A stretch of DNA of 64,000 nucleotides, from NCBI GenBank assembly GCA_903859215.1, contig CAIOLW010000059.1, positions 937 through 64,936 of the forward strand. Reading direction: 5' to 3'. Positions 11,241 through 60,952 of the stretch are shown here, piece after piece. The notes below the pieces were generated by a model, which was given only the letters and a program-made list of their open reading frames with translations, was not told where the DNA came from and did no database searches. Origin of the DNA: an uncultured bacterium. GTDB lineage: Bacteria > Krumholzibacteriota > Krumholzibacteriia > LZORAL124-64-63. The position numbers and the translations under genes were made by a program. Numbering within the stretch: the stretch's first letter is position 1; the number at the start of each line of letters is the position of its first letter.

Positions 11241-11242
11241 CC

Positions 11243-35572: not shown

Positions 35573-37180
35573 ATGCCCATGCACCGTCTGCGGCGACGAA
35601 ATGCCGTCCTGACCTGGTGGTTCACCGCCGGCGCGCTTCTGGCGGCAGGCAGCACCGCCGCGGCACCGTCCGGGGCGCCCGCCGCCCCCGACAGTTCGCT
35701 GGCTGCGGTCCTGGCCGCGATGCCGGGCGAACCCGTGGCCCTGACGACGCTGCTGGCCGAGGCCGGTGGCCAGGCTGTGGCTGCGCGCCTGGCCGACGCC
35801 GACTACACCGCCGCCGCCGCTGCACTGCGCAGCGAGCGCGGCGCCTTCGACCCCGAGCTGTTCGGCAGCGCAACACGCACCGGCGACGAGCAGCCCGCGG
35901 CCTCGCTGTTCGCCGGGGCGCCGATCCTGCGCAACGAGACGACCGCGATGGAAGCCGGCGCGCGGATTTCGCTGCCGATCGGGACCGAATTGTCGGCCTC
36001 GCTCGCGACGGTGCGGACGACCACGAACTCGACCTACGCCGCGCTGTCGCCGCAGTACCAGACGTTCGGTTCGCTGACCGTGCGGCAGCCGCTGCTGAAG
36101 GGCTTCGGGCCCGCTGCGGGCGCGGGCCTGCGCGCGGCCGAGAGCGGCCTGGCCGCTGCGGGCGCCCGCCGGCAGGCGGCGCGCCAGGCGGTGACCGCCG
36201 AGGTCGAGGCGCGGTACTGGGAACTGTACGCCGGCGAGCGCGACCTGGCGGTGGCGGTGCTGATCCGCGACCGCGCGCGCGTCTTCCTGGGCGAAGCCCG
36301 GCTCAGGGCGCAGGCCGGCCTGGTCGGCCCGAGCCAGGTGGCCAGCGCCGAGGTCTTCCTGGCCGAACAGGAGCAGCGCGTGCTGGACGCCGAGGACCAG
36401 CTGGACCAGCGCTCGGACGCCCTGGCCAGCCTGGTGGGCAGGCGCCCGGCGCAGGGCGCGACGCGGTTCCGGCCCGCCGACGAGCCGCCGCCGCAGCCGC
36501 GCAGCCTGCCTGTCGAGTCGCTGCTGGTCGCCGCAGCGGCCAACAACCCCGACCTCCAGGCGCTGGACGAGCAGTGCCGCGCCGCGCGCGCCCGCGCCGA
36601 CGGCGCAAAGTGGGATGCGCGTCCGCGCGTCGACCTCTTCGGCGGCATCGGCGGCAACGGCCTGTCGGGCACGCCGCGCGACATCGTCTTCCCCGGCTCG
36701 ACCGACACCCTGCGCTACGACGTGCCCGGCGGCTTCGGCCCCGGCTGGGCCCAGGTGCGCGACCGCGACTACCCGTGGTGGAACGCGGGTGTCATCGTGA
36801 GCCTGCCGCTCGGCGGCCGCGCCGGCGGCGGCGAGGCGGAACGGCGGCGCGCCGAGGTGGCGCGCGCTGAGAACCAGCTCGAGGGCGCCCGGCGCCAGCT
36901 CGAGGAACAGGTGCGCGCCCAGCAGCGCGAACTGGAACGCGGCGCGCGGCGCCTGGAACTGGCGCGGGCCGGCGTGGACGCCTCGGTCCGCCAGGTCGAG
37001 ATCGGCATGATCGAATACCGCAACGGGCGCAGCACCGCGTTCGAGGTCGTGCGCCTGACGGCCGACCTGGCCGGCGCGCAGCAACGCTATTCCCAGGCCC
37101 TGGTGCGCACGGCGCGCGCCGCGGCCGCCTTGACGCAACTGACCGGCGGCTGGTACCAGCCCGCCACGGGACGGGAGTGA
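35573..37180 (+). CDS. TolC-family outer-membrane efflux protein
   Basis: Signal peptide MPMHRLRRRNAVLTWWFTAGALLAAGSTAAA. Two OEP repeats with coiled-coil segments. The start is ambiguous (35531, 35573 or 35579). Confidence 0.85.
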   Translation: MPMHRLRRRNAVLTWWFTAGALLAAGSTAAAPSGAPAAPDSSLAAVLAAMPGEPVALTTLLAEAGGQAVAARLADADYTAAAAALRSERGAFDPELFGSATRTGDEQPAASLFAGAPILRNETTAMEAGARISLPIGTELSASLATVRTTTNSTYAALSPQYQTFGSLTVRQPLLKGFGPAAGAGLRAAESGLAAAGARRQAARQAVTAEVEARYWELYAGERDLAVAVLIRDRARVFLGEARLRAQAGLVGPSQVASAEVFLAEQEQRVLDAEDQLDQRSDALASLVGRRPAQGATRFRPADEPPPQPRSLPVESLLVAAAANNPDLQALDEQCRAARARADGAKWDARPRVDLFGGIGGNGLSGTPRDIVFPGSTDTLRYDVPGGFGPGWAQVRDRDYPWWNAGVIVSLPLGGRAGGGEAERRRAEVARAENQLEGARRQLEEQVRAQQRELERGARRLELARAGVDASVRQVEIGMIEYRNGRSTAFEVVRLTADLAGAQQRYSQALVRTARAAAALTQLTGGWYQPATGRE

Positions 37181-38346
37181 TGATGGCAGCGACGATCAAA
37201 CACGAAGCCGGGCGCGCGACGGGCCTGCGGGCATCCCTGGTGATGACAGGGCTGGCCCTGCTGGCGCTGTCCCTGGCCGCCGGCGGCTGCCGCGGCAAGA
37301 AGGCCGCCGGCGGCTTCACGCCGCCGCCGACGCCGGTCGAGACGGCGACCGTCGCGCGCGGCCCGGTGGCCGACCGCTTCACCACCGTCGGGACGCTTGA
37401 GGCGGGCGAGTCGGTCGACGTCGCCGCCGAGATCGACGGCGTGGTCCGGGCCCTGCCCTTCCCCGAAGGCGGGCAGGTGGCGGCGGGCGCGCTCATCGCG
37501 CGGCTGGACGACGTCCAGCTGGCCGCCGAGGCGCAGCGCGCCGAGGCCCTGCGCGACCAGAGCCGCGCGATGTTCGAGCGCGTGCGCTCGGTCGTCGACC
37601 AGGGCGCCGGCGCGCCGCAGGACCTCGACGACGCCACGGCCGCCCTGAAGGTGGCCGAGGCGAACCTGGACCTCGCGAAGGCGCGCCTGGCCAAGACGCG
37701 CGTCACCGCGCCGTTCGCCGGCACCGCCGGCATCCGCCGCGTCAGCCCCGGCGCCTTCGTGCGCGCGGGCACGACGCTGACCGACCTGGCGCAGATCGAC
37801 CGGCTAAGGCTGACGTTCTCGGTGCCCGAGCGGCTGCTCGGCCGCCTGGCCCTGGGCGCGCCGGTGCGCGTCGAGACGACGGCCCACGCAGGGCAGGTGC
37901 TGGAAGGGAAGATCGCCATCATCGAGCCGCAACTGGACCAGCAGTCGCGCAGCGCGCGCGTCGTCGCGCACGTCGACAACCCGGGACGGCTGCTGCGGCC
38001 GGGCATGTCGGCCTCGGTGGCCCTGGTGCTGGACGAGCGCGCCGAGGCGCTGACGGTGCCCAGCCCCGCGGTGTTCGTCACCGCCGGACAGACGTACGTG
38101 TACGTGGTGACGCCCGAGGGCGTCGTGGCGCGGACGCCGGTGCAACTGGGCACGCGGACGGCCGACGCGGTGGAAGTCGTGTCGGGCCTGGCTGAGGGCC
38201 AGCAGGTGGTGACCGCCGGCCACCAGAAGCTCTATGACGGCGCCAAGGTGGCGGCGATCGGCGCGGGTGCGCCGGGCCAAGGTGCGACGAGCCAAGGTGC
38301 GCCGGGTCAGGGCGCGCCCGCCTCCGCCCAGGGCGGGAGCCACTGA
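37180..38346 (+). CDS. RND efflux periplasmic adaptor (MFP) lipoprotein
   Basis: Lipobox AAGGC. Barrel-sandwich/hairpin motifs (VTAPFAGTAGIRRVSPGAFV). GTGATGATG overlaps the tolC stop. Low-complexity GAPGQGA tail. Confidence 0.9.
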   Translation: MMAATIKHEAGRATGLRASLVMTGLALLALSLAAGGCRGKKAAGGFTPPPTPVETATVARGPVADRFTTVGTLEAGESVDVAAEIDGVVRALPFPEGGQVAAGALIARLDDVQLAAEAQRAEALRDQSRAMFERVRSVVDQGAGAPQDLDDATAALKVAEANLDLAKARLAKTRVTAPFAGTAGIRRVSPGAFVRAGTTLTDLAQIDRLRLTFSVPERLLGRLALGAPVRVETTAHAGQVLEGKIAIIEPQLDQQSRSARVVAHVDNPGRLLRPGMSASVALVLDERAEALTVPSPAVFVTAGQTYVYVVTPEGVVARTPVQLGTRTADAVEVVSGLAEGQQVVTAGHQKLYDGAKVAAIGAGAPGQGATSQGAPGQGAPASAQGGSH

Positions 38347-41300
38347 TGAAGCTGAGCGAACTGTCCATCCGCCGGCCCGTCTTCACGATCGTGATGAGCC
38401 TGGCGATCGTGTTGCTGGGCGTCATCTCGTTCTCGCGGCTGCCGGTGCGCGAATACCCGGAAACCGACCCGCCGATCGTCTCGGTGACGACCATGTACCG
38501 CGGCGCCAGCCCGAACGTGGTCGAGACCGAGATCACCGACGTGCTCGAGGAGCAGTTCTCGACCATCGAGGCGGTCAAGACCATCACCTCGAGCAGCCGC
38601 GAGCAGGGCTCGATCATCACGATCGAGTTCGAGCAGAAGCGCGCCGTGGACGAGGCGGCCAACGACGTGCGCGACCGGGTGTCGCGTGTGCGCGGCGCCC
38701 TGCCGCGCGAGGCGGACGACCCGATCGTCGCCAAGGTCGACGTCAACGCCCAGCCGATCATGTGGATCGCCCTCGGCAGCGACAGGCATTCGACCCTGGA
38801 GCTGTCGGACGTCGCCGACCGCCTGCTCAAGGAGCGGCTGCAGCGACTGCCCGGCGTGGGCTCCATCTTCCTGGGCGGCGAGCGCCGCTATGCCATGCGC
38901 GTGTGGCTGGACCCGATCCGCATGGCCTCGCGCGGGCTGTCGGTGCAGGACGTCGAGCGCGCGATCCGCGTCGAGAACGCCGAGATCCCCAGCGGTCGCG
39001 TCGAGGGCACGGGACGCGAGTTCGCGGTGCGCACGCGCGGTGAACTGGACACGCCCGAGGGGTTCGGCGGGATCATCGTGGCCCGGCGCGGCGACGACAT
39101 CGTGCGCCTGGACGAGGTGGCCAGGATCGAGGTCGGCGCCGAGGACGAGCGCACGATGACCCGCTACAACGGCCAGCCGGCCGTCGGCATGGGCATCGTC
39201 AAGCAGAAGCAGGCCAGCACGCTCGACGTCGCTGCCGCGGTCCGCAAGGCCCTGCCCGACCTGGCGACGCTGCTGCCCGAGGGCATGCGCCTGGACATCG
39301 CCTACGATTCGTCGACGTTCGTGGCCGAGTCTGTGCACGAGGTGCGCAGCACGATCCTGATCGCCATCGCGCTGGTCGTGCTCGTGGTGCTGGTGTTCCT
39401 CAAGAGCGTGCGGGCGACGATCGTGCCCGTGGTCGCCATCCCCATCTCGATCGTGGGCGCGTTCATCCTGGCCTACGCGCTGGGCTTCACGATCAACATC
39501 CTGACGCTGCTGGCGCTGGTGCTGGCCATCGGACTGGTCGTCGACGACGCCATCGTGGTGCTGGAGAACGTCTACCGGCACCTTGAGATGGGCAAGTCCC
39601 GGCGACAGGCCGCGATCGACGGCGTGCGCGAGATCGGGTTCGCCGTCATCGCCACCACCGTGGCGCTGGTGGCCGTGTTCATCCCCGTGGCCTTCCTGAC
39701 CGGCAGCGTGGGCCGGCTGTTCCGCGAGTTCGGCCTGACGCTGGCCTTTGCCGTCGCACTGTCGGCCTTCGTGGCGCTGACGCTGACGCCGATGATGTGC
39801 TCGCGCATGCTGCGCCCGCTGCACGGCGGCTCGACCAGCTGGGCCAGCCGCACGTTCGACGCGTTCTTCGGCGGCCTCGACCGCATCTACGCCCGGACGC
39901 TGGGCCTGGCCCTGCGGCAGCGCGTGGCGGTCATCTGCATCGGCCTGGCGCTTGTCGGCGGCATCGTGGTGCTGTTCCGCGGGCTGCCCGAGGAACTGGT
40001 GCCCACCGAGGACCGCGGCACCGCCTTCGGCATCATCACCGCGCCCGAGGGCGCGACGCTGGAATACACCGACCGCTACATGAAGATGGTCGAGGCGCAA
40101 CTGCTGCCGATCCCCGAGCGGAAGGGCCTCTTTTCGGCCACGGGCCTCGGCTTCGGCGGCCCCGGCCGCGTCACGAACGGCTTCGTCTTCCTGGCGCTCA
40201 AGCCGCGCGGCGAGCGCGAGCGGTCGCAGCAGGAGATCGTCGGGCAGATGTTCCCGCGGCTGCTGGGCATCCCCGGCGTGCTGGCCTTCCTGGTCAACCC
40301 GCCCAGCCTGGGCGCCTCGGGCTCGTCGTCGGACATCTCGTACGTGCTGCAGGCGGACACCTACGAGGAACTGGGCGCGGCCGTCGGGACGATGATGGCG
40401 TCGGCCTCGAAGCTCGGCTACCTGGTGAACCTGAACACCGACCTGCAGCTGAACAAGCCGGAGCTGCAGATCGCCATCGACCGCGAGCGCGCGGCCGGGC
40501 TGGGCGTCTCGGTGACCGACATCGGCTCGACGCTGGAGGCCTACCTGGGCGGCCGCGTGGCGGGCGACTTCAAGCGCGGCGCCAAGCAGTACGATGTCAT
40601 CCTGCAGCTGGACGCGGCCGGCCGCGCGACGCCCGACGTGATCGAGCAGATGTACGTGCGCGGCGCCGGGGGGCAGCTGGTGCAGATGGCCAACGTCGTG
40701 AAGGTGCAGGAAGCGGCCTCGGCCAAGGAGCTGAACCACTTCAACCGCGTGCGCTCGGCCACGATCACCGCCAGCCTGGCGCCGGGCACGGGCCTGGGCA
40801 AGGCGCTGGACGACCTGGACACCATCTGGCGGCAGGAGCTGCCCAAGACGGTCAAGCGCGACCTGTCGGGGGCCTCGCGCGAGTTCCGCGACTCGAAGAA
40901 CACGCTCTTCTTCATGTTCGGCCTGGCGCTGGTCTTCATCTTCCTGGTGCTGGCCGCCCAGTTCGAGAGCTTCGTCGACCCGCTGACGATCCTGCTGTCG
41001 GTGCCGCTGGCCGTGTTCGGGGCGCTGCTGGCGCTGACGATCTTCGGGCAGTCGCTCAACATCTTCTCGCGCATCGGCCTGATCATGCTGGTCGGCCTGG
41101 TGACGAAGAACGCCATCCTGATCGTCGAGTTCGCCAACCAGCTGCGCGCGCAGGGCCGGACGGTGGTCCAGGCGGTGACCGAGGCGTCGGTGATCCGGCT
41201 GCGGCCCATCCTGATGACCTCGTTCGCGACGGTCTTCGGCATCCTGCCCATCGCCATCGGGCTGGGCGCGGGCGCCGAGTCGAGGCGGCCGCTGGGCATC

Positions 41301-41462
41301 GCGGTGGTGGGCGGCGTGCTGTTCTCGACGTTCCTGACCCTGCTGGTGGTGCCGGTGGTGTATTCGCTGCTGGCCAGGTTCACGAGCGCGGTGCGCGGCG
41401 CGGAGATCGGCGCGGACGGCGATCCCGGGGCGAACCCGGCGGAGTTGGCGGGCGGGCGCTAA
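38346..41462 (+). CDS. RND transporter permease (HAE1/AcrB-like)
   Basis: 1038 aa. MKLSELSIRRPVFT. TM4 motif GLVVDDAIVVLEN. 12-TM topology with two large loops. TGATG overlap with the MFP gene. Confidence 0.95.
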   Translation: MKLSELSIRRPVFTIVMSLAIVLLGVISFSRLPVREYPETDPPIVSVTTMYRGASPNVVETEITDVLEEQFSTIEAVKTITSSSREQGSIITIEFEQKRAVDEAANDVRDRVSRVRGALPREADDPIVAKVDVNAQPIMWIALGSDRHSTLELSDVADRLLKERLQRLPGVGSIFLGGERRYAMRVWLDPIRMASRGLSVQDVERAIRVENAEIPSGRVEGTGREFAVRTRGELDTPEGFGGIIVARRGDDIVRLDEVARIEVGAEDERTMTRYNGQPAVGMGIVKQKQASTLDVAAAVRKALPDLATLLPEGMRLDIAYDSSTFVAESVHEVRSTILIAIALVVLVVLVFLKSVRATIVPVVAIPISIVGAFILAYALGFTINILTLLALVLAIGLVVDDAIVVLENVYRHLEMGKSRRQAAIDGVREIGFAVIATTVALVAVFIPVAFLTGSVGRLFREFGLTLAFAVALSAFVALTLTPMMCSRMLRPLHGGSTSWASRTFDAFFGGLDRIYARTLGLALRQRVAVICIGLALVGGIVVLFRGLPEELVPTEDRGTAFGIITAPEGATLEYTDRYMKMVEAQLLPIPERKGLFSATGLGFGGPGRVTNGFVFLALKPRGERERSQQEIVGQMFPRLLGIPGVLAFLVNPPSLGASGSSSDISYVLQADTYEELGAAVGTMMASASKLGYLVNLNTDLQLNKPELQIAIDRERAAGLGVSVTDIGSTLEAYLGGRVAGDFKRGAKQYDVILQLDAAGRATPDVIEQMYVRGAGGQLVQMANVVKVQEAASAKELNHFNRVRSATITASLAPGTGLGKALDDLDTIWRQELPKTVKRDLSGASREFRDSKNTLFFMFGLALVFIFLVLAAQFESFVDPLTILLSVPLAVFGALLALTIFGQSLNIFSRIGLIMLVGLVTKNAILIVEFANQLRAQGRTVVQAVTEASVIRLRPILMTSFATVFGILPIAIGLGAGAESRRPLGIAVVGGVLFSTFLTLLVVPVVYSLLARFTSAVRGAEIGADGDPGANPAELAGGR

Positions 41463-41534: not shown

Positions 41535-43592
41535 GTGAGCCCCGAGACGACCGCTGCCCGCATGGCCGAGTTCCAGCAGCAGCTGCGAGCCGGCATTCCC
41601 GACGCCTTGCCGCCGCGGCCGGCGGAGGACCCGGCCATCAGCCGGGCCCCCCGCCGGCCGCTGGCGCTCGACGACCGGCAGAAGCGCCTGGCCGTCCGTA
41701 ACGCCCTGCGCTACTTCCCCGAGCGCCTGCACGCCGAACTGGCCCCCGAGTTCGCCGCCGAGTTGGCCCAGTGGGGCCATATCTACATGCACCGCTTCCG
41801 GCCTGCGTACGCCATGCAGGCGCGGCCCCTGTCCTGGTACCCTGCCGCCTGCCCGCAGGCCGCCGCGATCATGCTGATGATCCAGAACAACCTGGACCCG
41901 GCCGTGGCGCAGCACCCCTACGAACTGGTCACCTACGGCGGCAACGGAGCCGTCTTCCAGAACTGGGCGCAGTACCTGCTGACGATGCGGTACCTCTCGC
42001 AGATGACCGACGAGCAGACCCTGCCCATGTACTCCGGCCACCCGCTCGGCCTGTTCCCCAGCCACCCCGATGCGCCGCGCGTGGTCGTGACCAACGGCAT
42101 GGTCATCCCCAGCCATTCCCGCGTCGAGGACTACACGACGATGTACGCCCTCGGCGTCTCGAACTACGGGCAGATGACCGCCGGCAGCTACATGTACATC
42201 GGGCCGCAGGGCATCGTGCACGGCACCACCATCGCGATCCTGGGCGCCGGGCGCCTGTACCTGGGCCTGCCTCCCGACGCGCCGTCGCTGGCCGGCCGCG
42301 TCTACCTGAGCAGCGGGCTGGGCGGCATGAGCGGCGCCCAGGGCAAGGCCGCGGTCATCGCCGGCTGCGTGGGCGTCATCGCCGAGATCAATCCCGCGGC
42401 CGTCGCCAAGCGGAAGGCGCAGGGCTGGGTGGACGAGGTCTACACCTCGCTGCCGGAGCTCCTGGAACGGGTGACGCGCGCGCGCTGCGGCGGCGAGGCT
42501 GTCGCCATCGCCTACCAGGGCAACATCGTCGACCTGTGGGAGGCGCTGGCCGACAGCGACGTCACGGTCGACCTGGCCAGCGACCAGACCAGCCTGCACA
42601 TCCCCTACACCGGCGGCTACTACCCGGCGGGGCTGACGTTCGAGGAAAGCAACGCGATGATGGCGAGCGACCCGGAGGGCTTCCGCGCCCGGGTGCAGGC
42701 TTCGCTGCGTCGCCACCTGGCGGCCATCGACCGCTGCGCCGCGCGCGGCACGCGGTTCTGGGACTACGGCAACGCGTTCCTGCTCGAGTGCGACCGCGCC
42801 GGCTGCGCCGTGGCGCGCGGCGACGGCGGCTTCCGCTACCCCAGCTACGTCGAGGACGTGATGGGGCCGTCGTGCTTCGACTACGGCTTCTGCCCGTTCC
42901 GCTGGGTCTGCACCAGCTGCGACCCGGCCGACCTGGCCATGAGCGACCGCATCGCCGAGGAGGTCATGGAGATCATGACCGCCAAGGCGCCGGCGCAGAC
43001 CTCGCAGCAGTACCTCGACAACCTGCGCTGGATCCGGCAGGCGGGCGTCAACAACCTGGTGGTCGGCTCGCAGGCACGCATCCTCTACTCGGACGCCGAG
43101 GGCCGGCGCGCCATCGCAGCGGCGTTCAACCGGGCGATCATGCGCGGGCAGATCTCGGCCCCGATCGTCATCGGCCGCGACCACCACGACGTGTCGGGCA
43201 CCGACAGCCCCTACCGCGAGACGGCCAACATCCGCGACGGGTCGATGTTCTGCGCCGACATGGCCGTGCAGAACTTCCTGGGCGACGGCTGCCGCGGCGC
43301 CACCTGGGTGTCGCTGCACAACGGCGGCGGCGTCGGCTGGGGCGAAGTGATCAACGGCGGCTTCGGGCTGGTGCTCGACGGCAGCGCCGACGCCGACCGC
43401 CGGCTGCACCAGATGCTGCACTGGGACGTGAACAACGGCGTCGCGCGCCGGGCGTGGGCGCGCAACGAGGGCGCCGAGTTCGCGATCCGGCGCGCCATGG
43501 ACCAGGAACCCGGCCTGACGGTGACGATGCCCGCGCACGCGGACGACGATGTCATCGACCGGGCCGTCGCCGATGCCTTCAAGGCGGAGTGA
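41535..43592 (+). CDS. hutU: Urocanate hydratase, long (~685 aa) form
   Basis: YGGNGAVFQNWAQY, GQMTAGSYMYIGPQGIVHGT, GLGGMSGAQ. GTG start with GGAGG 6 nt upstream. Confidence 0.9.
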   Translation: MSPETTAARMAEFQQQLRAGIPDALPPRPAEDPAISRAPRRPLALDDRQKRLAVRNALRYFPERLHAELAPEFAAELAQWGHIYMHRFRPAYAMQARPLSWYPAACPQAAAIMLMIQNNLDPAVAQHPYELVTYGGNGAVFQNWAQYLLTMRYLSQMTDEQTLPMYSGHPLGLFPSHPDAPRVVVTNGMVIPSHSRVEDYTTMYALGVSNYGQMTAGSYMYIGPQGIVHGTTIAILGAGRLYLGLPPDAPSLAGRVYLSSGLGGMSGAQGKAAVIAGCVGVIAEINPAAVAKRKAQGWVDEVYTSLPELLERVTRARCGGEAVAIAYQGNIVDLWEALADSDVTVDLASDQTSLHIPYTGGYYPAGLTFEESNAMMASDPEGFRARVQASLRRHLAAIDRCAARGTRFWDYGNAFLLECDRAGCAVARGDGGFRYPSYVEDVMGPSCFDYGFCPFRWVCTSCDPADLAMSDRIAEEVMEIMTAKAPAQTSQQYLDNLRWIRQAGVNNLVVGSQARILYSDAEGRRAIAAAFNRAIMRGQISAPIVIGRDHHDVSGTDSPYRETANIRDGSMFCADMAVQNFLGDGCRGATWVSLHNGGGVGWGEVINGGFGLVLDGSADADRRLHQMLHWDVNNGVARRAWARNEGAEFAIRRAMDQEPGLTVTMPAHADDDVIDRAVADAFKAE

Positions 43593-43597: not shown

Positions 43598-44521
43598 ATG
43601 GACGCGCAGCCCGAGAAACTTCCCCGCCCCCGCGTCGCCGCCCTGGACGACATCCTTGGCATGCCGTTCAAGGTGCTCGACGACGGTCTCGTGCGCGTGG
43701 TCGACTACATGGGCGACGACGCGGCCGTCGTGCAGGCGGCGCGCGTCAGCTACGGGGCCGGCACGAAGGCCGTCTCGGACGACCGCGGCCTGATCCGCTA
43801 CCTGCTGCAGCACCGCCACACCACGCCGTTCGAGATGTGCGAACTGAAGCTGCACGTGCGCGTGCCCATGGACGCGTGGCGGCAGTGGATACGCCATCGC
43901 ACGGCCTCGGTGAACGAGACCAGTTCACGCTATTCGGTGGTCACCGACGCGGCGCAGCACACGGCCCCGGACGCCTGGCGCGGCCAGAGCAGCGACAACA
44001 AGCAGGGCAGCCTGGGCTTCCTCGACGAGGTGACGGGCGCGGGCTTCACCGCCTCCGAGCGCGAACTGCAGGCCCATGCGCGGCGCGTCTACGACGAACG
44101 CCTGGCCGCCGGCGTCGCGCGCGAGCAGGCCCGCAAGGACCTGCCCCTGTGCACGTACACCGAGGCCTACTGGAAGGTGGACCTCCACAACCTGCTGCAT
44201 TTTTTGGCCCTGCGCATGGACCCGCACGCGCAGAAGGAGATCCGCGACTACGCGACGGTGATCGGCCGCGAGATCGTCGCGCGCTGGGTGCCCCTGACGT
44301 GGGAGGCCTTCGCGGACTTCCGGCTGGGCGCCGTGGCGTACTCGCGGATCGAGAATGCCGTCATGGCCGCGGTCGGCGCGGGCGACATTGAGCGGGCCTG
44401 CGCGGTCGCGCGCGAAGCCGGCTGGCTGAAGCCGGCGTCGGCGGGCGGCTATGTCCGCAACCGCGAGCGCCTTGAATGCGAGCAGAAGCTGAACGACCTG
44501 AACCTGTCCATCCCCTGGTGA
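43598..44521 (+). CDS. thyX: FAD-dependent thymidylate synthase
   Basis: ATG 43598 inside track ORF 41771..44521. ThyX signature RHRTASVNETSSRYS. Confidence 0.95.
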   Translation: MDAQPEKLPRPRVAALDDILGMPFKVLDDGLVRVVDYMGDDAAVVQAARVSYGAGTKAVSDDRGLIRYLLQHRHTTPFEMCELKLHVRVPMDAWRQWIRHRTASVNETSSRYSVVTDAAQHTAPDAWRGQSSDNKQGSLGFLDEVTGAGFTASERELQAHARRVYDERLAAGVAREQARKDLPLCTYTEAYWKVDLHNLLHFLALRMDPHAQKEIRDYATVIGREIVARWVPLTWEAFADFRLGAVAYSRIENAVMAAVGAGDIERACAVAREAGWLKPASAGGYVRNRERLECEQKLNDLNLSIPW

Positions 44522-44545
44522 TCCCCGCCTCGAGGAGGTTGCCCC

Positions 44546-44893
44546 GTGCCCAAGCGCATCGACTGGTACTACCACCGCAACGGCTGAACGAGCTGCACCA
44601 GGTCGCAGGGGTTCCTTGCGAATCATGGCCTCGACATCGCCGAATCCGTCAGCGCCGCGAAGAAGCTGGGCGCCGACGACGCCCGCAAGCTGGTGAAGAA
44701 CGCCAAACGGCTGCTCGTGATGAAGGGCAGCAAGGTCGCGGTGTTCGACCTGACGAAGGACAAGCCCGCGGATGCCGAACTGATGGAGCTGATGCTGGGT
44801 TCGACCGGCAACCTGCGCGCGCCGGTGATCGTGCGCGGCACGACGGTGCTCGTGGGGTTCAACGGGGACGTCTACGGGGACGAGCTGGGCTGA
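44546..44893 (+). CDS. ArsC/Spx/YffB-fold redox protein with in-frame TGA (candidate selenocysteine, UxxC motif)
   Basis: AGGAGG (44533-44538), 7 nt, then GTG 44546. 13 sense codons, TGA at 44585-44587, then open to TGA 44891-44893. Product is MPKRIDWYYHRNG-U-TSCTRSQGFLANHGLDI...NLRAPVIVRGTTVLVGFNGDVY. The track shows only the 66-aa tail (44693..44893). Confidence 0.6.
44598..44628 (+). promoter_or_regulatory. Candidate bacterial SECIS hairpin
   Basis: Upper stem UCGCAGGG / CCUUGCGA (44603-44610 with 44614-44621; 8 bp including one G-U). Loop GUU. Lower stem CCA/UGG (44598-44600 with 44626-44628). The apical loop starts 23 nt after the UGA. Confidence 0.45.
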
Positions 44894-44897: not shown

Positions 44898-46097
44898 CTA
44901 CTCCACCCGGCAGACGAGACCCTTGAGATAGGCGCCCTCGGGGAAGCTCATGAGCACCGGGTGGTCGTCGGACTGCTGCAGGCGGTCGACCAGCTGCAGG
45001 TTGCGGCCCGCGTCCAGCGCGGCATCGGCCACGATCTTCTGGAACAGGTCGGCCTCCAGCAGCCCCGAGCACGAGAACGTCACCAGCAGGCCGCCCGGGC
45101 GCAGCAGCTTCAGCGCCTGCATGTTGATGTCCTTGTAGCCGCGGCAGCCGCGCGGCAGGTGCTGGCGACTCTCGATGAACTTCGGCGGGTCCAGCACGAT
45201 CAGGTCGAAGGTGCGTTCTTCCTGATGCCACTGGCGCAGGCGCGTGAAGGCGTCGGCCTCGACGGACGTCCAGCGCGAGGCCTCGAAACCGTTCAACTCG
45301 GCGTGGCGCGCGGCCATTTCCAAAGCGCCCGCCGACGACTCGAGGTGCGTCACGCGGGCGGCCCCGCCCGCCAGCGCGGCCAGGCCGAAGCCGCCGGTGT
45401 AGGCGAAGCAGTTGAGCATGTCGCGCCCGGCCGCCAGTTGCCCCACGCGGGCGCGCGCGGCGCGCTGGTCCAGGTAGAACCCGGTCTTGTGGCCGTGCCG
45501 CACGTCGACCAGCAGGCGCACGCCGTTCTCGTGGAACTCGACGACCTCGGGCGCCTCGCGCCCGCGCCAGTGGCCGGCGCGCACGGGCAGGCCCTCCTTG
45601 ATGCGCACTTCGGCATCCGAGCGCTCGTACAGGCCGGCGCAGCCGGTCGCCGCCAGCAGCGCGTCGGCGATCTCTTCCTTCCAGCGCTCGCAACCCGCCG
45701 ACAGCACCTGCGCCACCAGCTGGTCGCCGTAGCGGTCGACGATCAGCCCGGGCAATCCGTCGTTCTCGGCGTTGATGAGCCGCCGGGCCCAGGGCCCGCC
45801 CTCGTCCGGGGCGCCCCGGCGGGCGACCGCGGCCTCGACCTGCGCGGCGAAGAAGGCGGCGTCGATCTCCTGGTAGGGATCGAAGGTCCACAGGCGGGCG
45901 CGGATCTGCGAGTGCGGCGAGTAGGCGCCCATGCCCATGGGCGTGCCGTTGGACGCCGTCACGGTGACGGTGTCGCCCGCGTTGGGCGTGCCCTCGACGC
46001 GGGCGATGGCGCCCGAGAAGACCCACGGGTGCCAGCGCCGCAGCGACTTGTCGCGGCCGGGCTTCAGGTGGACGATGGGGCCGGTGCGCGCGCTCAT
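44898..46097 (-). CDS. rlmI: PUA-domain SAM-dependent 23S rRNA m5C methyltransferase (RlmI/YccW-like)
   Basis: 399 aa. HPWVFSGAI, GLIVDRYGD, KTGFYLDQR, NCFAYTGGF, LDPPKF. Confidence 0.85.
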   Translation of the reverse strand: MSARTGPIVHLKPGRDKSLRRWHPWVFSGAIARVEGTPNAGDTVTVTASNGTPMGMGAYSPHSQIRARLWTFDPYQEIDAAFFAAQVEAAVARRGAPDEGGPWARRLINAENDGLPGLIVDRYGDQLVAQVLSAGCERWKEEIADALLAATGCAGLYERSDAEVRIKEGLPVRAGHWRGREAPEVVEFHENGVRLLVDVRHGHKTGFYLDQRAARARVGQLAAGRDMLNCFAYTGGFGLAALAGGAARVTHLESSAGALEMAARHAELNGFEASRWTSVEADAFTRLRQWHQEERTFDLIVLDPPKFIESRQHLPRGCRGYKDINMQALKLLRPGGLLVTFSCSGLLEADLFQKIVADAALDAGRNLQLVDRLQQSDDHPVLMSFPEGAYLKGLVCRVE

Positions 46098-47026
46098 GGC
46101 TTGATCCGCGTGATGACGGGCAGGTGGTCGCTGACCTGGGCGAAGTAGGTGCCCGGGCCGGACGGGAACACGGACTGCAGGTGGACGACCGTCGTCAGGG
46201 CGCCGGGCGCATCCAGCGCGGCGAACAGCGGCGCGGTCACCAGGATGTGGTCCAGGTGGCTGGGCCGCGGGGGGTACGACCAGTCGCCGCTCGGCCCGAG
46301 CGCGACGGCCATGTCCGCGAACCGGAAGGTGTCGGGCGCGTCCAGGAAGTTCCGGAAGACGTTGTTCGGCGGCGCGTCGGTGATGGCGTCGTTCATGTCG
46401 CCGACGATGAACACGCGCTTGCCCGCCAGTTCGGTGGCCGCGTACTGCCCGAGCAGGATGCAGGCGTCGCGGCGCCGTGTTTCCTCGTCGTTCGGGTCCG
46501 CGGGATCCATCACGCCGTCGCCCATGGCTTTCAGGTGGTTGGCGATCACCACGATCGGCGTGCCGTTCCAGGTGGCTTCGAGCACGTACGGCGAACGCGG
46601 GAATTCCCGCCAGTAGTCGCCGTAGATCTCGTAGATGGAAGTGACCTCGAGCCCGCCGTCGGTGCGGTACAGGAAGGCCAGGTTCTGTTGCGCGGGCGCG
46701 CCGGTCGCGGCGGAACCGGTCCAGCCAACGAGCGCATTATCAAGTTGGCTGAACGTCGTCGGGTTCGTCATCTCCATGATCGCCAGCACGTCAGGCTGCA
46801 CGCCCTCGACGACCTGCGCGACCCAACCTGCGGTGGCGGTGGACTTCGGGAAGTTCTCGAGGTTCCAGGTCATGACCTCGAGCGTGCTGTCGGCGCCCAC
46901 CTTGGCCGCGTCGAACGGGTTGCCCACCGGATCCGGCGTCGACGTGTCCGTCTTGCCGCACCCCGACAACGCGAGCGCGGCCCACAGGCCCACCGGCAGC
47001 ACCAGCCAACGTCGATTCTCGAACAT
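46094..47026 (-). CDS. Endonuclease/exonuclease/phosphatase (EEP) family lipoprotein
   Basis: ATG 47026 with GGAGG 7 nt upstream. Lipobox LSGC. MTWNLENF, GDMND, SDHLPV. ATGA overlap with rlmI. Confidence 0.8.
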   Translation of the reverse strand: MFENRRWLVLPVGLWAALALSGCGKTDTSTPDPVGNPFDAAKVGADSTLEVMTWNLENFPKSTATAGWVAQVVEGVQPDVLAIMEMTNPTTFSQLDNALVGWTGSAATGAPAQQNLAFLYRTDGGLEVTSIYEIYGDYWREFPRSPYVLEATWNGTPIVVIANHLKAMGDGVMDPADPNDEETRRRDACILLGQYAATELAGKRVFIVGDMNDAITDAPPNNVFRNFLDAPDTFRFADMAVALGPSGDWSYPPRPSHLDHILVTAPLFAALDAPGALTTVVHLQSVFPSGPGTYFAQVSDHLPVITRIKP

Positions 47027-47063
47027 GCAGGGGCCTCCCGGACCGCTGGGTTTCAGGCGGGTA

Positions 47064-48293
47064 TTATGCACCGCCGGCGCCGGCCGCGCCAGCCGCCGGG
47101 ACCGGAAGCGGGCGTTCGGGCACCCGGATCCGCAGGCAGACGAAGAATCCGGCCAAAGCGAGCGCCCCGGCCAGCAGGAAAACCCATTGGTGGCCGTAGC
47201 GTTCCCAGAGCCAGCCCGAGAGGATGGGCAGGGTCATCGCGACGGCGTGGTCGATGCTCACGCCCAGCGAGATCGTCGGCGTGATGTCGGCCGGGTCCAG
47301 GGCGATCTTCTTCAGGTAGGTCGTGCGCGCCACGCGCAGGGCGAACAGGACGTTGTCCAGGATGTAGGCGCCGAAGAGCACCCACAGGTCCCACGGCGCC
47401 GGCAGCAAATCCGACGCGAAGGCGTAGACCAGGCAGACGCCCAGCAGCAGCAGCTCGTCGGCCGCCAGCACGATGCGCTCGCCCAGCCAGTCGATGACGT
47501 CGCCCAGCAGCGGCCGCATCAGCACGCCGAGCGCCGAGGCGATGAAGTACAGCAACGCGATGGTCGAGACCGACACATGGTGCAGCGAGACCAGCACCCA
47601 GGTGCCGAAGACCAGGAAGATCTGCTTGCGGATGCCGAACAGCGCGCTGATCGCGTAGAAGATGCCGTACTCGCGACGGAAGACCAGGCGACGCGACGGC
47701 ACATCCTGCTTGCCGATCTGCACCCGCAGGTAGAAGAACCCCGCCACCGCGGCGCAGAGCGCGCCGCCCAGGTAGAAGATGTCGTAGCGATCGCCGAGCA
47801 GACGGGAGGTCACCCAGACGCCGGACACGCCGAGAATGACGCCCAGGTTGCGGGCACCGCCGAGCTGGCCAAGGCGTCGGCCTTCGGCGCCGGGCTTTGC
47901 CAGCTTCAGGCCCAGCGGGCCTTCCACCGCGAAGATGATGTGGTCACCCAGCGACCAGATGATCGTCCACAGGACCAGGAGCGCCGGCCCGCGGGCCAGC
48001 CAGCCCAGGCCAAGCGAACCAATGACCGTCGCGATCATCGCCAGCGCGGCGATGCGGCTCTCGCGCATGCGGATCAGCAACAGCCCGACGACCGCGAGGA
48101 TGATGAATCCCGGGGCCTCGCGCGGCAGTTCGAGCCAGCCGCGGCTGCTGGCGTCGAAACCGTGGACATCGGCGAGGTAGTTGTTGAACGTCGAGGAGAT
48201 GATGCCCGACACGGCGCCGAAGAACATGGTCGCCAGCACCACGCGCCGGAAGTCGCCTTGCACCTGCCCGGACAGTTCGCGCCACGTCCTCAA
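47064..48293 (-). CDS. MFS transporter
   Basis: About 12 TM helices in the C-terminal 409 aa of track ORF 47064..49529. TTG 48293 overlaps the malQ stop (TTGA). Alternative starts are GTG or ATG a few codons downstream. Confidence 0.75.
   Translation of the reverse strand: MRTWRELSGQVQGDFRRVVLATMFFGAVSGIISSTFNNYLADVHGFDASSRGWLELPREAPGFIILAVVGLLLIRMRESRIAALAMIATVIGSLGLGWLARGPALLVLWTIIWSLGDHIIFAVEGPLGLKLAKPGAEGRRLGQLGGARNLGVILGVSGVWVTSRLLGDRYDIFYLGGALCAAVAGFFYLRVQIGKQDVPSRRLVFRREYGIFYAISALFGIRKQIFLVFGTWVLVSLHHVSVSTIALLYFIASALGVLMRPLLGDVIDWLGERIVLAADELLLLGVCLVYAFASDLLPAPWDLWVLFGAYILDNVLFALRVARTTYLKKIALDPADITPTISLGVSIDHAVAMTLPILSGWLWERYGHQWVFLLAGALALAGFFVCLRIRVPERPLPVPAAGAAGAGGA

Positions 48294-52898: not shown

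Positions 52899-52906
<8 letters not shown>
51125..52906 (-). CDS. Fusion protein: sugar-1-phosphate nucleotidyltransferase (MurU-like) plus APH-fold sugar kinase (AmgK-like)
   Basis: N-terminus MVLCAGYGTRLRPLTDLVPKPLLPV. C-terminal kinase fold (GSDRRFWRL, HRDYQSQNLLV, VVDLQG). ATG 52906 overlaps the NamZ-like stop by 8 nt. Confidence 0.7.
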
Positions 52907-54077
<1,171 letters not shown>

Positions 54078-54117
54078 GTCCGACTCCCGGTCGGGTTCCG
54101 TCGTTCGGTGCCTGCGG

Positions 54118-55269
54118 TCAGCGCGTGGCGAGCGACTCGATCGCCTCGGCCATGCGCGCCCACGAATACTTCTTCTTCTCGGCCGTGACCGCCGCCGCGA
54201 ACTCGCCGGCCTTGCCTTCGTCGAAGAACCGCACGATGGCGCCTGCCAGCGCCGCCGGGTCGCCGGGCGGCACCAGGAACCCGGTGCGGCCGTCGAGCAC
54301 GACCTCCGGCAGGCCACCGACGTTCGTTGTCACGACAGGCCGGTCGTAGTTGTAGGCGATCTGCACGATGCCGCTTTGCGTGGCCGACACGTAGGGCAAC
54401 ACGACGAGGTCGGCCGCCACGAAGTAGCTCTCCACCAGTTCGTCCGGCACGAAGCCGTCGACCAGGCGGATGACGTCGGCCGCGCCCGAGTCGTCGATGC
54501 GGTCGAGGTACGGCTGCTTGTCGCCGTAGACGTCTCCCACGAGCAGCACGCGCACGTCGTCGCCGTAGCGTTCCTTCAGCAGCGGCGCCGCGTCAATCAG
54601 GTGCAGCACGCCCTTGTACGGCTTGATGAAGCCGAAGAACAACACCAGGCGCGCCGCCCGGGGCAGGTCGAGCCGCGCGCGGGCCGCCTCGCGCGTCGGC
54701 CGCGGCCGGCCGGGCGCGCCGAAATCGTACACGGGATGCGGCGCATCCACCACGCAGCGGTCGTCGACGTCCGGCAGCACGATCTTCAGGTCCTGCCGGA
54801 CCTGCGCGCTCTGCGCGATGAACCCGTGGCCCTGCCCGAGCGCCCGCCGCGTCAGGAACAGGCCGAACGGGTACTTCTCGTGCGGAATCACGTTGTCCAG
54901 CAGGTAGATCACGCGCACCTGGGTGCGCCGCCGCAGCAGCCAGGTCACGGCCCAGAAGCCCGGGGCGAAGAACGGGATCCAGTACTTGATGACGAGCGCC
55001 CGCGGCGCCGCGCGCCGGATGTCGCGGTACGTCCGCCACCAGCTGAGCGGCGACCACGGCACGAAGCGCGGCAGGTTCGGGTGGTCGAGCCAGGCGGCCG
55101 ACTCGCCCTCCTGGGCGCTGCCGGGGAACATGAACCCGGGGTACTGCCGCCGGAACGAGGCCCAGAACACCTCGTGGCCGCGCGTCCCCAGTTCCCGCGC
55201 CAGCAGGCCGTAGTAGGTGACGATGCCCCCGCGCAGCGGCGGCGCCGGGCCGAGGAAGGCCAGCTTCAC
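54118..55269 (-). CDS. Glycosyltransferase family 4 (GT-B, Glycos_transf_1)
   Basis: GTG 55269 (VKLAFLGPAPP) in a GTGA overlap with the upstream gene. NVGGLPEVVLDGRTGFLVPPGD. Confidence 0.85.
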   Translation of the reverse strand: MKLAFLGPAPPLRGGIVTYYGLLARELGTRGHEVFWASFRRQYPGFMFPGSAQEGESAAWLDHPNLPRFVPWSPLSWWRTYRDIRRAAPRALVIKYWIPFFAPGFWAVTWLLRRRTQVRVIYLLDNVIPHEKYPFGLFLTRRALGQGHGFIAQSAQVRQDLKIVLPDVDDRCVVDAPHPVYDFGAPGRPRPTREAARARLDLPRAARLVLFFGFIKPYKGVLHLIDAAPLLKERYGDDVRVLLVGDVYGDKQPYLDRIDDSGAADVIRLVDGFVPDELVESYFVAADLVVLPYVSATQSGIVQIAYNYDRPVVTTNVGGLPEVVLDGRTGFLVPPGDPAALAGAIVRFFDEGKAGEFAAAVTAEKKKYSWARMAEAIESLATR

Positions 55270-56381: not shown

Positions 56382-57482
56382 TCAGCGCCCGGCCGGCGTC
56401 TCGTGTGCGCGGATCTGCTTCATCGCTTCGCGGGCCTGCACGTTGAGCCCGCTGGGCAGGCCGTCCTGGATGGCCTTGCCGTAGGCGCTCTCGGCCTGTG
56501 TCCAGTTGTCCATCGCGACGTAGAGGCGTCCCATGTAGAAGTAGACGACGGCGGCGTCGCCCTTGTCGCGGAACAGCGCCAGGGCCTGCGTGAAGGCGTC
56601 GATCGCCTCGAAGTTCCGCTCCAGCACCGCCAGTGCGCGGCCCTTCATCGTCAGCAGCGCCGCGCGCGCGCTGGAGTCGAACTCCAGCCCGCTGTCGAGC
56701 ACCTTCGTGGTCGTCGCCAGCGCCTCGGCGGCCTGGCCGGCGCCCAGTTCCTTCTCGGCCTGGTCCATGCCCTGGTGCACCGGGGCCGGCAGCGGCGCCC
56801 GCAGGCGGCGCAGGTCCGCGCGCAGGTCCAGCGCCAGCGATCGCATGTCGCCGGGCAGTTCGCCGGCCAGCGCCTCCTCCACCAGGGCGGCGGCGCGATC
56901 GAGGTACTGCCCGTCGCGCATGAAGCCGGCCAGAAGGACCTTGGCCACGCCGTCCTCGGGATTCTCCAGGAGCGCCGAGCGGCAGTGGTCCTGGGCCTCG
57001 AGCCGGCGACCGGCGGCGAAGTCCTCGAGCGCGCGGTTGACGTGGTAGCCGTAGGCGGCGTGCACCTGGTTGCGCGGCGGCCCCTGGAGCGTGACGGTGA
57101 AGGCCGCCTCGTGGGCGCCGTTGGTCAGGACGACGATGACCTCTTCGCCCGTGCCCCACGGGACCAGCACCTCGTGGCGCGCCTCGTCGGTCTTGTAGTA
57201 GAGCAGCGACTCGCCCTTCATCCGCAGCACGTTCACGTCGCACTGGGACTGGCCGCCGTCGACGATCAACCGCCAGGCGCGGACCGGGATCTGGTCGAAC
57301 GACACGCGGAACTGGAACGACTCGCCCGGCTGCAGGAAGTAGCTGTCCGACTTGTAGGTCTCCCACGAGTTCCCGGCGGGCGCGGGAGCCGGCGCGGGCG
57401 GCATCGCCCAAGCGGCCGGCGCCAGCAGCGCGAGCGCCAGCAACCACGGCGCGATCCGGCGCGGAAGATGCAGCAGGTGCAT
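56382..57482 (-). CDS. Secreted protein: N-terminal beta-rich domain plus C-terminal TPR repeats
   Basis: ATG 57482. Signal MHLLHLPRRIAPWLLALALLAPAAWA. TPR-like helices in the C-terminal half (AIDAFTQALALF, AESAYGKAI). Confidence 0.7.
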   Translation of the reverse strand: MHLLHLPRRIAPWLLALALLAPAAWAMPPAPAPAPAGNSWETYKSDSYFLQPGESFQFRVSFDQIPVRAWRLIVDGGQSQCDVNVLRMKGESLLYYKTDEARHEVLVPWGTGEEVIVVLTNGAHEAAFTVTLQGPPRNQVHAAYGYHVNRALEDFAAGRRLEAQDHCRSALLENPEDGVAKVLLAGFMRDGQYLDRAAALVEEALAGELPGDMRSLALDLRADLRRLRAPLPAPVHQGMDQAEKELGAGQAAEALATTTKVLDSGLEFDSSARAALLTMKGRALAVLERNFEAIDAFTQALALFRDKGDAAVVYFYMGRLYVAMDNWTQAESAYGKAIQDGLPSGLNVQAREAMKQIRAHETPAGR

Positions 57483-57498
57483 GATCGTCACCCTCAGG

Positions 57499-57527
57499 TT
57501 GAACCGCGTGGCAAGTTGACCGATACT
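57499..57527 (+). promoter_or_regulatory. Candidate sigma70 promoter for the 57661 gene
   Basis: TTGAAC (57499-57504), 17 nt, GATACT (57522-57527). Confidence 0.35.
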
Positions 57528-57660
57528 GGGGCCGAATGTACCGGATGGGCGCAGGGAACTCAAGATGACAGGCGGTTTTCCGCCGCTGCCCGGCCCCCGG
57601 GACCGGGATGGAACCCACCGCCGGCCGCCCCCCGCGTCGCCGGCAGGAAAGGAAACCGGG

Positions 57661-58758
57661 ATGACCTTCGACACCCTCCCCGTGACCGGCCCCCGCCGGG
57701 CGCGCCGCCGCCCCGCGGCCGGCCTGCCCGCCGCGCTGCTGCCCGGGCTGCTGTGCCTGCTGCTGGCCGCCTGGGGCGCGACGGACGCCGCCGCCCAGGC
57801 CACCCAGGGCACGCCCTCGGACCTGCGCCTGGTCGTCCACGACGCCACGACCGGCCTGGCGGGCACCCCCGACCGCGTCGTCATCGACTATGTCCTGGGG
57901 ACGCCCAACACCATCCTGGACATGAAGCCGGCGGCCGGCGAGTTCACGGCCCCCGGGGTCCCGGTCAAGGACATCGGGACGTACATCGTGACGGTGTGGT
58001 ACCAGGGCGTGCCCTACTGGTGGCAGAAGCGCGGCTCGGACCTGACCGGCGGCCCGGTCACGCTGGACGTCTTCAGCGTGACCACGGCGCGCGGAAATCT
58101 CGCCATCAAGGGCCTGAACTTCGTGGTCCAGCACCGCGAGACCACGGCCGAGATCGAGATGCTGGCCGAGGTCACGAACCTGGCCACGCCGCAGGCCACC
58201 GTCTTCGGCCCCGGCGCCACCCTGGAACTGCCCCTGCCCGCCGGATCCACCGAAGTGAAGGCCAGTTACCTGCGCGGGGCCGAGCCGACGCCGGTGGACG
58301 TCTCGGTGTCCGGCACGCGGGCCGTGCTGAAGGTGCCGCTGACGCCCGGTTCGACGCGCGTGCGCGTGACGGCGGTCGCACCGTGGCGGGACACGCTGGA
58401 AATCCCGATCGGCAGCGACCTGGCGATCGAGGCGTGGAGCCTGCTGACGACCCCGGTGTCGGTCGGCGTGGAAGCCGAGGGCCTGCAGGCGCCGGACGAG
58501 AAGACGGTGCCGAACTATGCGCGCCGCCCCGGACCGGCGATCGCCGCCGGCGGCAGCCTGGTCGTGCGGCTCAGCACCGGCACCGCCGCCGGCAAGCCGG
58601 AGCCGCTGTTCAGCGCGCCCGCGGCCACCGGGGAGCCCGCAGCGGCCGCCCCGGCGGCGAAGGACACCAGGGCCAACCGTTTCCCGCTGCCCTTGGCCGC
58701 GGCGCTCGTGGTGGTTATCATCGGCGCCCTGGTCCTGGTGCGTCGCGGCCGCTCGTAG
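57661..58758 (+). CDS. Hypothetical exported protein with C-terminal TM anchor
   Basis: ATG 57661 with AGGAAAGGAA SD. Arg-rich N-region plus signal (LLPGLLCLLLAAWGATDAAAQA). Beta-rich body, Ala/Pro linker, then TM LPLAAALVVVIIGALVLV followed by RRGRS. Confidence 0.65.
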   Translation: MTFDTLPVTGPRRARRRPAAGLPAALLPGLLCLLLAAWGATDAAAQATQGTPSDLRLVVHDATTGLAGTPDRVVIDYVLGTPNTILDMKPAAGEFTAPGVPVKDIGTYIVTVWYQGVPYWWQKRGSDLTGGPVTLDVFSVTTARGNLAIKGLNFVVQHRETTAEIEMLAEVTNLATPQATVFGPGATLELPLPAGSTEVKASYLRGAEPTPVDVSVSGTRAVLKVPLTPGSTRVRVTAVAPWRDTLEIPIGSDLAIEAWSLLTTPVSVGVEAEGLQAPDEKTVPNYARRPGPAIAAGGSLVVRLSTGTAAGKPEPLFSAPAATGEPAAAAPAAKDTRANRFPLPLAAALVVVIIGALVLVRRGRS

Positions 58759-60890: not shown

Positions 60891-60952
60891 GACAAGGCGA
60901 CGAGTAGCCCCCTCCACAGATCCGCGTTTCCACGCCGAAAGTTGGTTTGCCC

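Follow-up and report, generated by a model that had tools for sequence, protein, structure and literature searches.

A UGA-containing ArsC-like gene behind thyX in an uncultured Krumholzibacteriia-like bacterium is probably a selenoprotein gene of the NF041106 family

The DNA analysed here is a stretch of 64,000 nucleotides (hereafter the window) with a GC content of 71% and about 40 annotated genes. By means of GC3 phasing and family searches an RND adaptor (37177-38346), an RND permease (38346-41462) and a urocanate-hydratase-like gene (hutU-like, 41535-43592) were delineated, all on the plus strand. They are followed on the same strand by thyX, encoding an FAD-dependent thymidylate synthase (43598-44521; TIGR02170, 176.9 bits with a cutoff of 87.9). 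The thyX stop lies 24 nt before a GTG at 44546, which opens a short frame that runs to 44893, and rlmI on the minus strand (44898-46097) is convergent and ends 4 nt past the stop of this frame. From this arrangement the short gene is predicted to be the last of a plus strand operon that comprises the RND pump, the hutU-like gene, thyX and the gene itself; given the 24 nt spacing, it is probably on the same transcript as thyX.

The frame 44546-44893 (plus strand) consists of 115 codons and a stop (TGA, 44891-44893), and is interrupted by a sole internal stop, the TGA at 44585-44587, which is codon 14. Its translation reads VPKRIDWYYHRNG*TSCTRSQGFLANHGLDI...GDELG*, or in full VPKRIDWYYHRNG*TSCTRSQGFLANHGLDIAESVSAAKKLGADDARKLVKNAKRLLVMKGSKVAVFDLTKDKPADAELMELMLGSTGNLRAPVIVRGTTVLVGFNGDVYGDELG*. 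With the internal TGA as the proposed selenocysteine (Sec) U14, positions 44585-44596 encode a U-T-S-C (UxxC) redox motif at the beta1/alpha1 junction. A Shine-Dalgarno (SD) sequence, AGGAGG (44533-44538), can be read 7 nt upstream of the GTG at 44546; upon inspection, no SD-like motif was found before the GTG at 44693 or before other internal in-frame starts. GC3 amounts to 0.86-0.90 and its phase is unbroken from the upstream gene across the TGA to 44893. The ORF listing of the region gives only a 66-aa ORF with a GTG start (44693-44893, plus strand), and on public contigs with 99.98% identity the annotated product likewise has 66 residues and no Pfam match; standard callers thus shorten this gene. 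Several of these features had been proposed by the sequence-only reading of the stretch: the frame with its internal TGA and its AGGAGG, the lack of a comparable signal before 44693, the 66-aa fragment as the only listed ORF, and a gene that standard callers would miss or truncate.

That the TGA results from a sequencing or assembly error, an objection foreseen when the gene was proposed, has next to no probability. Two further public assemblies (ENA and Logan), which each share 99.98% identity with the window and differ from it at a single base elsewhere, match it exactly over 44521-44893 including the TGA; the same TGA in independent assemblies addresses the objection, the TGA is also found in all close orthologs of the gene, and nothing specific speaks in favour of an error. 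TGA is the ordinary stop in 19 of the 27 window genes that have family support, and genome-wide TGA reassignment is excluded since the window genes use TGA as stop. A scan for further genes with in-frame TGA found no second convincing case in the window; a candidate on the minus strand (56382-84) was rejected as two adjacent genes that share one frame.

With the TGA read as Cys, the protein scores 120.3 bits (E = 5e-35) with the curated model NF041106, 'ArsC family (seleno)protein', whose cutoff is 85. Residues 5-110 of the protein span the entire profile (positions 1-107 of 107), and the Sec/Cys is placed first in the N-terminal xxC motif of the model. A search that spanned 5.8 billion proteins returned relatives mostly of 66, 75, 81 or 87 residues and few full-length ones, a pattern that would be expected if callers restart after the stop. 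The full-length homologs P0001 (77% identical to the window protein), P0031 and P0033 read DWYYHRNG-C-x-x-C, their first Cys aligning exactly with the TGA, and at least 15 cluster representatives also have Cys at this position. When 1.84 billion cluster representatives were searched exhaustively by HMMER with the post-TGA segment as query, 394 were identified at E <= 1e-3, 74 of them at E <= 1e-10. Among the best 150 of the 394, roughly 30 are full length and mostly CxxC; four of the full-length representatives carry W at the Sec position, which would fit a caller that applied an alternative genetic code and put Trp for TGA. In about 120 of these best 150 the sequence starts no earlier than the TGA position, often with 'MSC...' or 'MTC...', so most of the family is stored truncated.

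A scan of relatives, restricted to one genome per species, yielded at least 561, of which 80 loci were kept; 74 of the 80 could be placed by their N-terminal motif. The codon corresponding to 44585-44587 is TGA in 73 of these 74 loci and TGC in the remaining one (L034, from a Planctomycete). In the 73 loci a conserved (D/N)W(Y/S)YHRxG stands before the TGA and T-S-C after it. Taxa with relatives include Candidatus Krumholzibacteriia (the nearest named relatives), Planctomycetota, Phycisphaerae, Gammaproteobacteria, Myxococcota, Spirochaetales and Acidobacteriota. In orthologs the start is an ATG located exactly 13 codons ahead of the TGA, at the place of the GTG of the window, and this ATG is preceded by a GGAGG/AGGAG SD at the same offset as in the window. 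Third positions within the D-W-Y-Y-H-R-x-G segment vary synonymously among orthologs (GAC/GAT, TAC/TAT, CGC/CGG, GGC/GGA/GGT/GGG). From the ATG with its SD and the synonymous variation it follows that the codons ahead of the TGA are translated and kept by purifying selection, which requires decoding of the TGA. The gene hence shows an in-frame UGA aligned with Cys in homologs, within a coding sequence that is conserved on both sides, a mark of bacterial selenoprotein genes.

Two readings of the locus as something other than an intact gene with a decoded UGA bear on these comparisons. A Cys-form ArsC-like gene could have been killed by a TGC/TGT-to-TGA nonsense mutation, which would require a single base change and would agree with the fact that callers treat TGA as stop. 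The TGA is however shared by nearly all placeable loci from several phyla, the frame is intact, start and SD are conserved, and purifying selection acts on both sides of the TGA, which is followed by a covarying hairpin. Such a pseudogene is very improbable, and the comparative data effectively refute it. Alternatively the real gene might be the downstream ORF only, starting at GTG 44693 or at another internal start, with the 13 codons being leader or non-coding. This is what the ORF listing and the public gene calls report. It is nevertheless highly unlikely: no SD precedes any internal start, the internal starts chosen by callers differ among orthologs (66, 75, 81, 87 and about 102 aa), beta1, alpha1 and the redox motif of the fold would be missing from a 66-aa product, and Cys homologs are contiguous across the site. 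The sequence-only reading had placed Sec first in a UxxC motif and had named homologs that start downstream, or an unconserved WYYHRNG-x-TSC segment, as results that would speak against it; the Cys homologs that align across the TGA, the ATG at codon -13 and the conserved D-W-Y-Y-H-R-x-G bear the placement out.

Downstream of the UGA lies a SECIS-type hairpin (44603-44621, plus strand) that was characterized by folding, alignment and covariation. It has an 8-bp stem, UCGCAGGG/CCUUGCGA, and an apical loop GUU (44611-44613), thus UCGCAGGG-GUU-CCUUGCGA, with the loop beginning 23 nt after the UGA. The bSECISearch model uses a spacing of 16-37 nt, within which these 23 nt fall. The 61-nt hairpin segment folds at -17.7 kcal/mol with z = -0.34, and 71 of 200 shuffled sequences fold as well; in a sequence of 71% GC, this means that the significance of the hairpin comes only from comparative data.

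For this comparison 54 nt from the UGA onwards were aligned without gaps for the 73 loci. In nearly all of them the hairpin starts at column 19-20, and its stem comes in two versions of unrelated sequence. Class 1 (42 sequences, the window among them) has the stem (U/G)CGCA(G/A)G(G/A)-GUU-(C/U)CUUGCG(A/G/C/U) and codes for S/A-Q-G/E-F-L-A. Class 2, with 29 sequences, has GCGUCCA-AGUUCA-UGGACGC, codes for A-S-K-F-L/M-D-A and is paired one column out of register compared with class 1. A third, longer hairpin is present in the loci L051 and L079. Part of the conservation of the hairpin is confounded by conserved codons (S-Q-G-F-L-A).

Pairing was evaluated against alignments in which the 3' partners were slid. 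In class 1, 95.5% of cells are paired versus 38-66% when slid, and in class 2 the values are 94.4% versus 31-40%. Pair 26-30 of class 1 is G-C in 23 sequences and A-U in 18, and couples a non-synonymous change, GGG-to-GAG, with a synonymous one in a Phe codon, TTC-to-TTT; judging from the aligned loci, this coupled change cannot be explained by protein selection alone. Pair 19-37 of class 1 shows five standard pair types, and four of the seven pairs of class 2 have compensatory changes. RNAalifold recovered the same hairpin in both classes when no structure was supplied, and found no conserved lower stem in either class. G27 and U28 of the apical loop vary little or not at all in both classes. 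A conserved, covarying stem-loop shortly after the UGA, with a G in its apical loop, is a further mark of a bacterial selenoprotein gene. What the sequence-only reading had taken for a SECIS-like hairpin is upheld in its 8-bp stem, its GUU loop and its 23-nt spacing, but not in the 3-bp lower stem that it had added; lack of conservation at related loci, which it had listed as a refuting result, is contradicted by the 94-96% pairing and the compensatory changes.

Among the Cys forms, the hairpin is absent in L034 and P0033, and in P0001 it is weakened (-6.9 versus -11.5 kcal/mol); P0031 retains the remnant of a stem, with an altered loop. It is thus absent or degraded in three of four Cys-form loci. 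Like the E. coli fdhF-type SECIS, the window hairpin is situated a short way past the UGA within the coding sequence and has a small apical loop with a conserved G (and U), but its stem sequence is unrelated and it has no evident bulged U. No Rfam match was obtained with the whole window at gathering threshold or with 44480-44720 at E <= 10, and a usable bacterial SECIS model appears to be nonexistent in Rfam.

The machinery for Sec insertion was searched for in the window and around the related loci. No selA, selB, selD or tRNA-Sec was found among the annotated genes and by tRNA scan of the 64-kb window, which has no tRNA gene of any kind. tRNA scans of 60 related loci gave no tRNA-Sec either, and tblastn with E. 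coli queries found no SelA or SelB in the window and 80 related loci. E. coli SelD, searched by tblastn within 10 kb, identified selD in one of the 80 related loci (L080), 7 kb away. Directly after the gene in L074, ARAGORN reported a 97-nt 'tRNA-Thr(agt)' of tRNA-Sec-like length that has no Rfam support and was rejected as a false positive. The conservation of the TGA and of the SECIS, together with translation of the N-terminal segment, suggests that the source genome has the Sec machinery.

These searches bear on the possibility that the UGA is read as Cys or Trp by a near-cognate or specialised tRNA in a genome that lacks canonical Sec machinery, the hairpin aiding readthrough or pausing without binding SelB. 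The absence of sel genes and tRNA-Sec from the 64-kb window, the missing Rfam match of the hairpin and the homologs in which Cys is a functional substitute at this position would all fit. Against this, TGA serves as normal stop in the window genes, the family is curated as selenoprotein and listed in surveys of genomes with Sec machinery, the hairpin has a position and a loop G that are typical of bacterial SECIS elements and vanishes in Cys forms, and one relative has selD nearby. We consider such non-Sec readthrough unlikely. The preferred reading, to which we assign a probability of roughly 0.88, is that 44546-44893 encodes a 115-residue selenoprotein of the NF041106 family, a small thioredoxin-superfamily redox protein in which UGA is decoded as Sec via the SECIS hairpin.

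Regarding its fold, Spx proteins are closest by sequence among the solved structures (3l78, E = 7e-5). In PDB 3l78 and 7f75 the Spx redox switch, C-T-S-C, aligns exactly onto U-T-S-C, which gives the protein an N-terminal switch motif of the Spx type, and the LLRRP region of Spx aligns with the invariant GNLRAP of the NF041106 family. An AlphaFold2 model of high confidence (pLDDT 90.8, pTM 0.84) was made of the Cys homolog P0001, standing in for the window protein. The predicted elements are beta1 (7-10), alpha1 (15-26), beta2, alpha2, a beta-hairpin (55-68), alpha3, beta3-beta4 and alpha4. The best PDB fold matches of this model are Spx, YffB and "ArsC-related", with TM values of 0.50-0.57 and rmsd of 6-8 A, which indicates that the predicted fold resembles Spx/ArsC loosely.

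Profile searches give a similar picture. Cutoffs of the Spx/MgsR models are missed (TIGR01617, 33.1 versus 75.05 bits; NF002459, 25 versus 123) and TIGR00014, the equivalog of glutaredoxin-dependent arsenate reductase, does not match at E <= 1; within the ArsC/Spx/YffB superfamily the protein thus forms a branch of its own. Pfam ArsC (PF03960), a check that had been proposed along with the gene, passes marginally, with 25.0 bits and a gathering threshold of 24, over residues 13-110. Glutaredoxin (PF00462) matches with 27.2 bits versus 22.9, residues 51-96 aligning with profile positions 13-54, hence with the C-terminal half only; the UxxC region lies outside this match, which does not include the CxxC active site. 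The ArsC/Spx/YffB fold assigned by the sequence-only reading holds insofar as these proteins are the nearest PDB relatives, but the resemblance is loose and the thresholds of the Spx and ArsC equivalogs are not reached.

Spx/MgsR proteins (TIGR01617; PDB 1z3e, 3gfk, 3l78, 6ghb) are redox-sensing regulators that bind RNA polymerase, and they are the best PDB relatives by sequence and fold. They have the GxLR(R/A)P cis-Pro region and a GFN near the C-terminus in common with the window protein. They differ in that the P0001 model reaches TM values of only 0.50-0.56 with them, in an apparent 3-residue gap that the HMMER alignment places at 'EDGTDE' of Spx, the region of the Gly52 loop that contacts the RNAP alpha-CTD, in the beta-hairpin (residues 55-68 of the P0001 model) that replaces part of the helical subdomain, and in the missing C-terminal tail (115 aa versus about 131). 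R773-type glutaredoxin-coupled ArsC (PF03960, TIGR00014) belongs to the same superfamily and has its nucleophile at the same beta1-alpha1 position. Unlike ArsC and the UxxS 'Arsenate reductase 1', the window protein has UxxC rather than a single Cys or UxxS, and its gene has no ars operon context (arsR/arsB/acr3), its neighbours being thyX, the hutU-like gene, rlmI and the RND pump. Arsenate reduction by the window protein is not supported, and its function should not be read off the labels "arsenate reductase" or "Spx regulator".

In the mechanism that we propose, translation would start at GTG 44546 behind the AGGAGG and the ribosome would reach the UGA at 44585-87 after 13 codons. The hairpin at 44603-44621, located within the coding sequence of helix alpha1, would act as a bacterial SECIS and recruit SelB-GTP-Sec-tRNASec at the UGA, such that Sec is inserted as residue 14 instead of termination. 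We infer this SECIS-driven insertion from the conservation and covariation of the hairpin together with the established bacterial Sec pathway. U14-T-S-C17 would be positioned at the N-terminus of alpha1, like the nucleophilic Cys of thioredoxin-fold proteins, with U14 as the attacking nucleophile and C17 as the resolving residue, and a selenenylsulfide would be formed. The fold, the position of the motif and the analogy with the CTSC switch of Spx make a selenol/thiol redox couple the most likely chemistry, and the product would be a small selenol-thiol oxidoreductase or a redox sensor.

The gene order hutU-like/thyX/selenoprotein is kept in the closest clade (L001-L009, L012, L017 and L020), and thyX is located directly upstream in 12 related loci, including the Planctomycete L022. 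Position directly behind thyX was hence observed in the Krumholzibacteriia-like clade and, independently, in one Planctomycete. Unbiased neighbour clustering across the related loci identified no family-wide conserved neighbour; large neighbour clusters were rejected as alternative-frame artefacts of the high GC content. By analogy with NrdH for ribonucleotide reductase, the UxxC protein might serve flavin-dependent thymidylate synthesis specifically, as its redox partner or as a regulator that senses redox state, rather than being a generic oxidoreductase. We regard this as improbable; thyX is taken as context, and the linkage is a minor lead.

Selenoproteins of this kind have been described before. 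A 2005 survey of the Sargasso Sea reported an "arsenate reductase" selenoprotein with UxxS (PMC1088965). The GOS survey by Zhang and Gladyshev (2008) described "Arsenate reductase 2" (cd03032, UxxC) with 42 Sec sequences and 238 Cys homologs (PMC2398784). Reviews of 2022 (PMC9312934) and 2026 (PMC13188914) name an "Arsenate reductase-like protein, UxxC", the latter citing NF041106 and describing such families as functionally uncharacterized. NF041106 (ArsC_rel_Se_1) is the same as 'Arsenate reductase 2' and as the 'Arsenate reductase-like protein, UxxC' of both reviews. The window gene shares with this family the UxxC with Sec in first position, the mix of Sec and Cys forms, the SECIS hairpin directly after the UGA and the distribution over environmental sequences and metagenome-assembled genomes (MAGs). 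It differs from the NF041106 orthologs in its GTG start, where these have ATG, and in its setting behind thyX in a Krumholzibacteriia-like genome of 71% GC. It is thus a straightforward member of a family that has been described since 2008 and for which a curated model exists, as the sequence-only reading had anticipated in assigning it to a rare class that was already noted, and its novelty is low.

The existence of the gene itself is no discovery and its practical value lies in annotation. This gene and most relatives are present in public databases as fragments of 57-107 residues or with Trp at the Sec position, and wherever annotation does without the curated model, this makes the selenoproteome of Krumholzibacteriota, Planctomycetota and other MAG-only lineages look smaller than it is. 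The family also provides a clean example of a SECIS within the codons of an active-site helix that exists in two stem versions, which co-vary with the protein sequence (SQGFLA versus ASKFLD).

Alignments A3 and A4 of the related loci L001-L080 show that the stem of the SECIS hairpin, which lies within the coding sequence over the codons of helix alpha1 (44603-44621 in the window), comes in two unrelated versions, CGCAGG.../...CCUUGCG and GCGUCCA.../...UGGACGC, whose pairing registers are offset by one column. The stem version follows the version of the alpha1 helix, SQGFLA or ASKFLD. Since two stem versions track two helix versions, the alignments suggest that the RNA structure and the active-site helix have co-evolved in this selenoprotein family. 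A third and longer type of hairpin, with a 13-nt loop, is found in L051 and L079.

In the window thyX (43598-44521) lies directly 5' of the selenoprotein gene (44546-44893), with a gap of 24 nt. This gene order is retained in the closest clade (L001-L009, L012, L017 and L020), and thyX is also found directly upstream of the selenoprotein gene in the Planctomycete locus L022. ThyX is not known to require a thiol or selenol. Eleven loci belonging to several phyla (L022, L026, L030, L035, L052, L055, L061, L072, L073, L079 and L080) encode a sulfatase-like protein at most 5 kb away from the selenoprotein gene, an adjacency that may reflect no more than how common sulfatases are among marine Planctomycetes and their relatives.

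Further upstream in the window, the urocanate-hydratase-like protein encoded at 41535-43592 matches TIGR01228 with 394 bits (cutoff 375); the models for S-methyl-thiourocanate hydratase and thiourocanate hydratase also hit it, but under their cutoffs. Because the TIGR01228 match begins only at residue 110, the protein either carries some 110 extra residues at its N-terminus or has had its start wrongly assigned. Two further regions of the window, 9471-13650 and 60947-62886, contain PgaC-like and PgaB-like poly-N-acetylglucosamine synthesis genes and, apart from these, an agmatinase gene. The agmatinase gene adjoins one whose product strongly matches 1,9-bis(guanidino)-5-aza-nonane synthase (560 bits against a cutoff of 500), and together they represent a homospermidine-type polyamine pathway. 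At the thresholds applied, NCBIfam gave no match for several genes of considerable size, all on the minus strand, whose coding signal is clear (46094-47071, 47064 to about 48280, 21994-23280, 52899-54317 and 56382-57884). The gene calls of a near-identical public contig give the first of these regions a product of 310 residues that hits Pfam Exo_endo_phos, and the gene next to this region is called MFS_1.

The only Sec-machinery gene observed close to any family member in the 80 related loci is a selD homolog in L080, from a gammaproteobacterial MAG. The homolog sits on the minus strand of the locus at about 16968-17921, roughly 7 kb away from the selenoprotein gene, and its product is 35% identical to E. 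coli SelD (E = 1e-38). Immediately 3' of the selenoprotein gene in L074, from a Candidatus Eisenbacteria MAG, ARAGORN calls a "tRNA-Thr(agt)" (10355-10451) whose 97 nt are a tRNA-Sec-like length; the call is probably a false positive, given that Rfam reports no tRNA there at E <= 1.

The table of codons at the Sec position covers 74 of the 80 loci, the N-terminal motif regex not having placed L010, L011, L013, L014, L016 and L033. Among database representatives of the family, the full-length proteins P0038, P0048, P0052 and P0163 carry Trp exactly at the Sec position (e.g. YFRKGWTTC), most likely a TGA rendered as Trp by a gene caller under an alternative genetic code. Such Trp-for-TGA translation would be a second route by which selenoproteins of the NF041106 family get mis-recorded.
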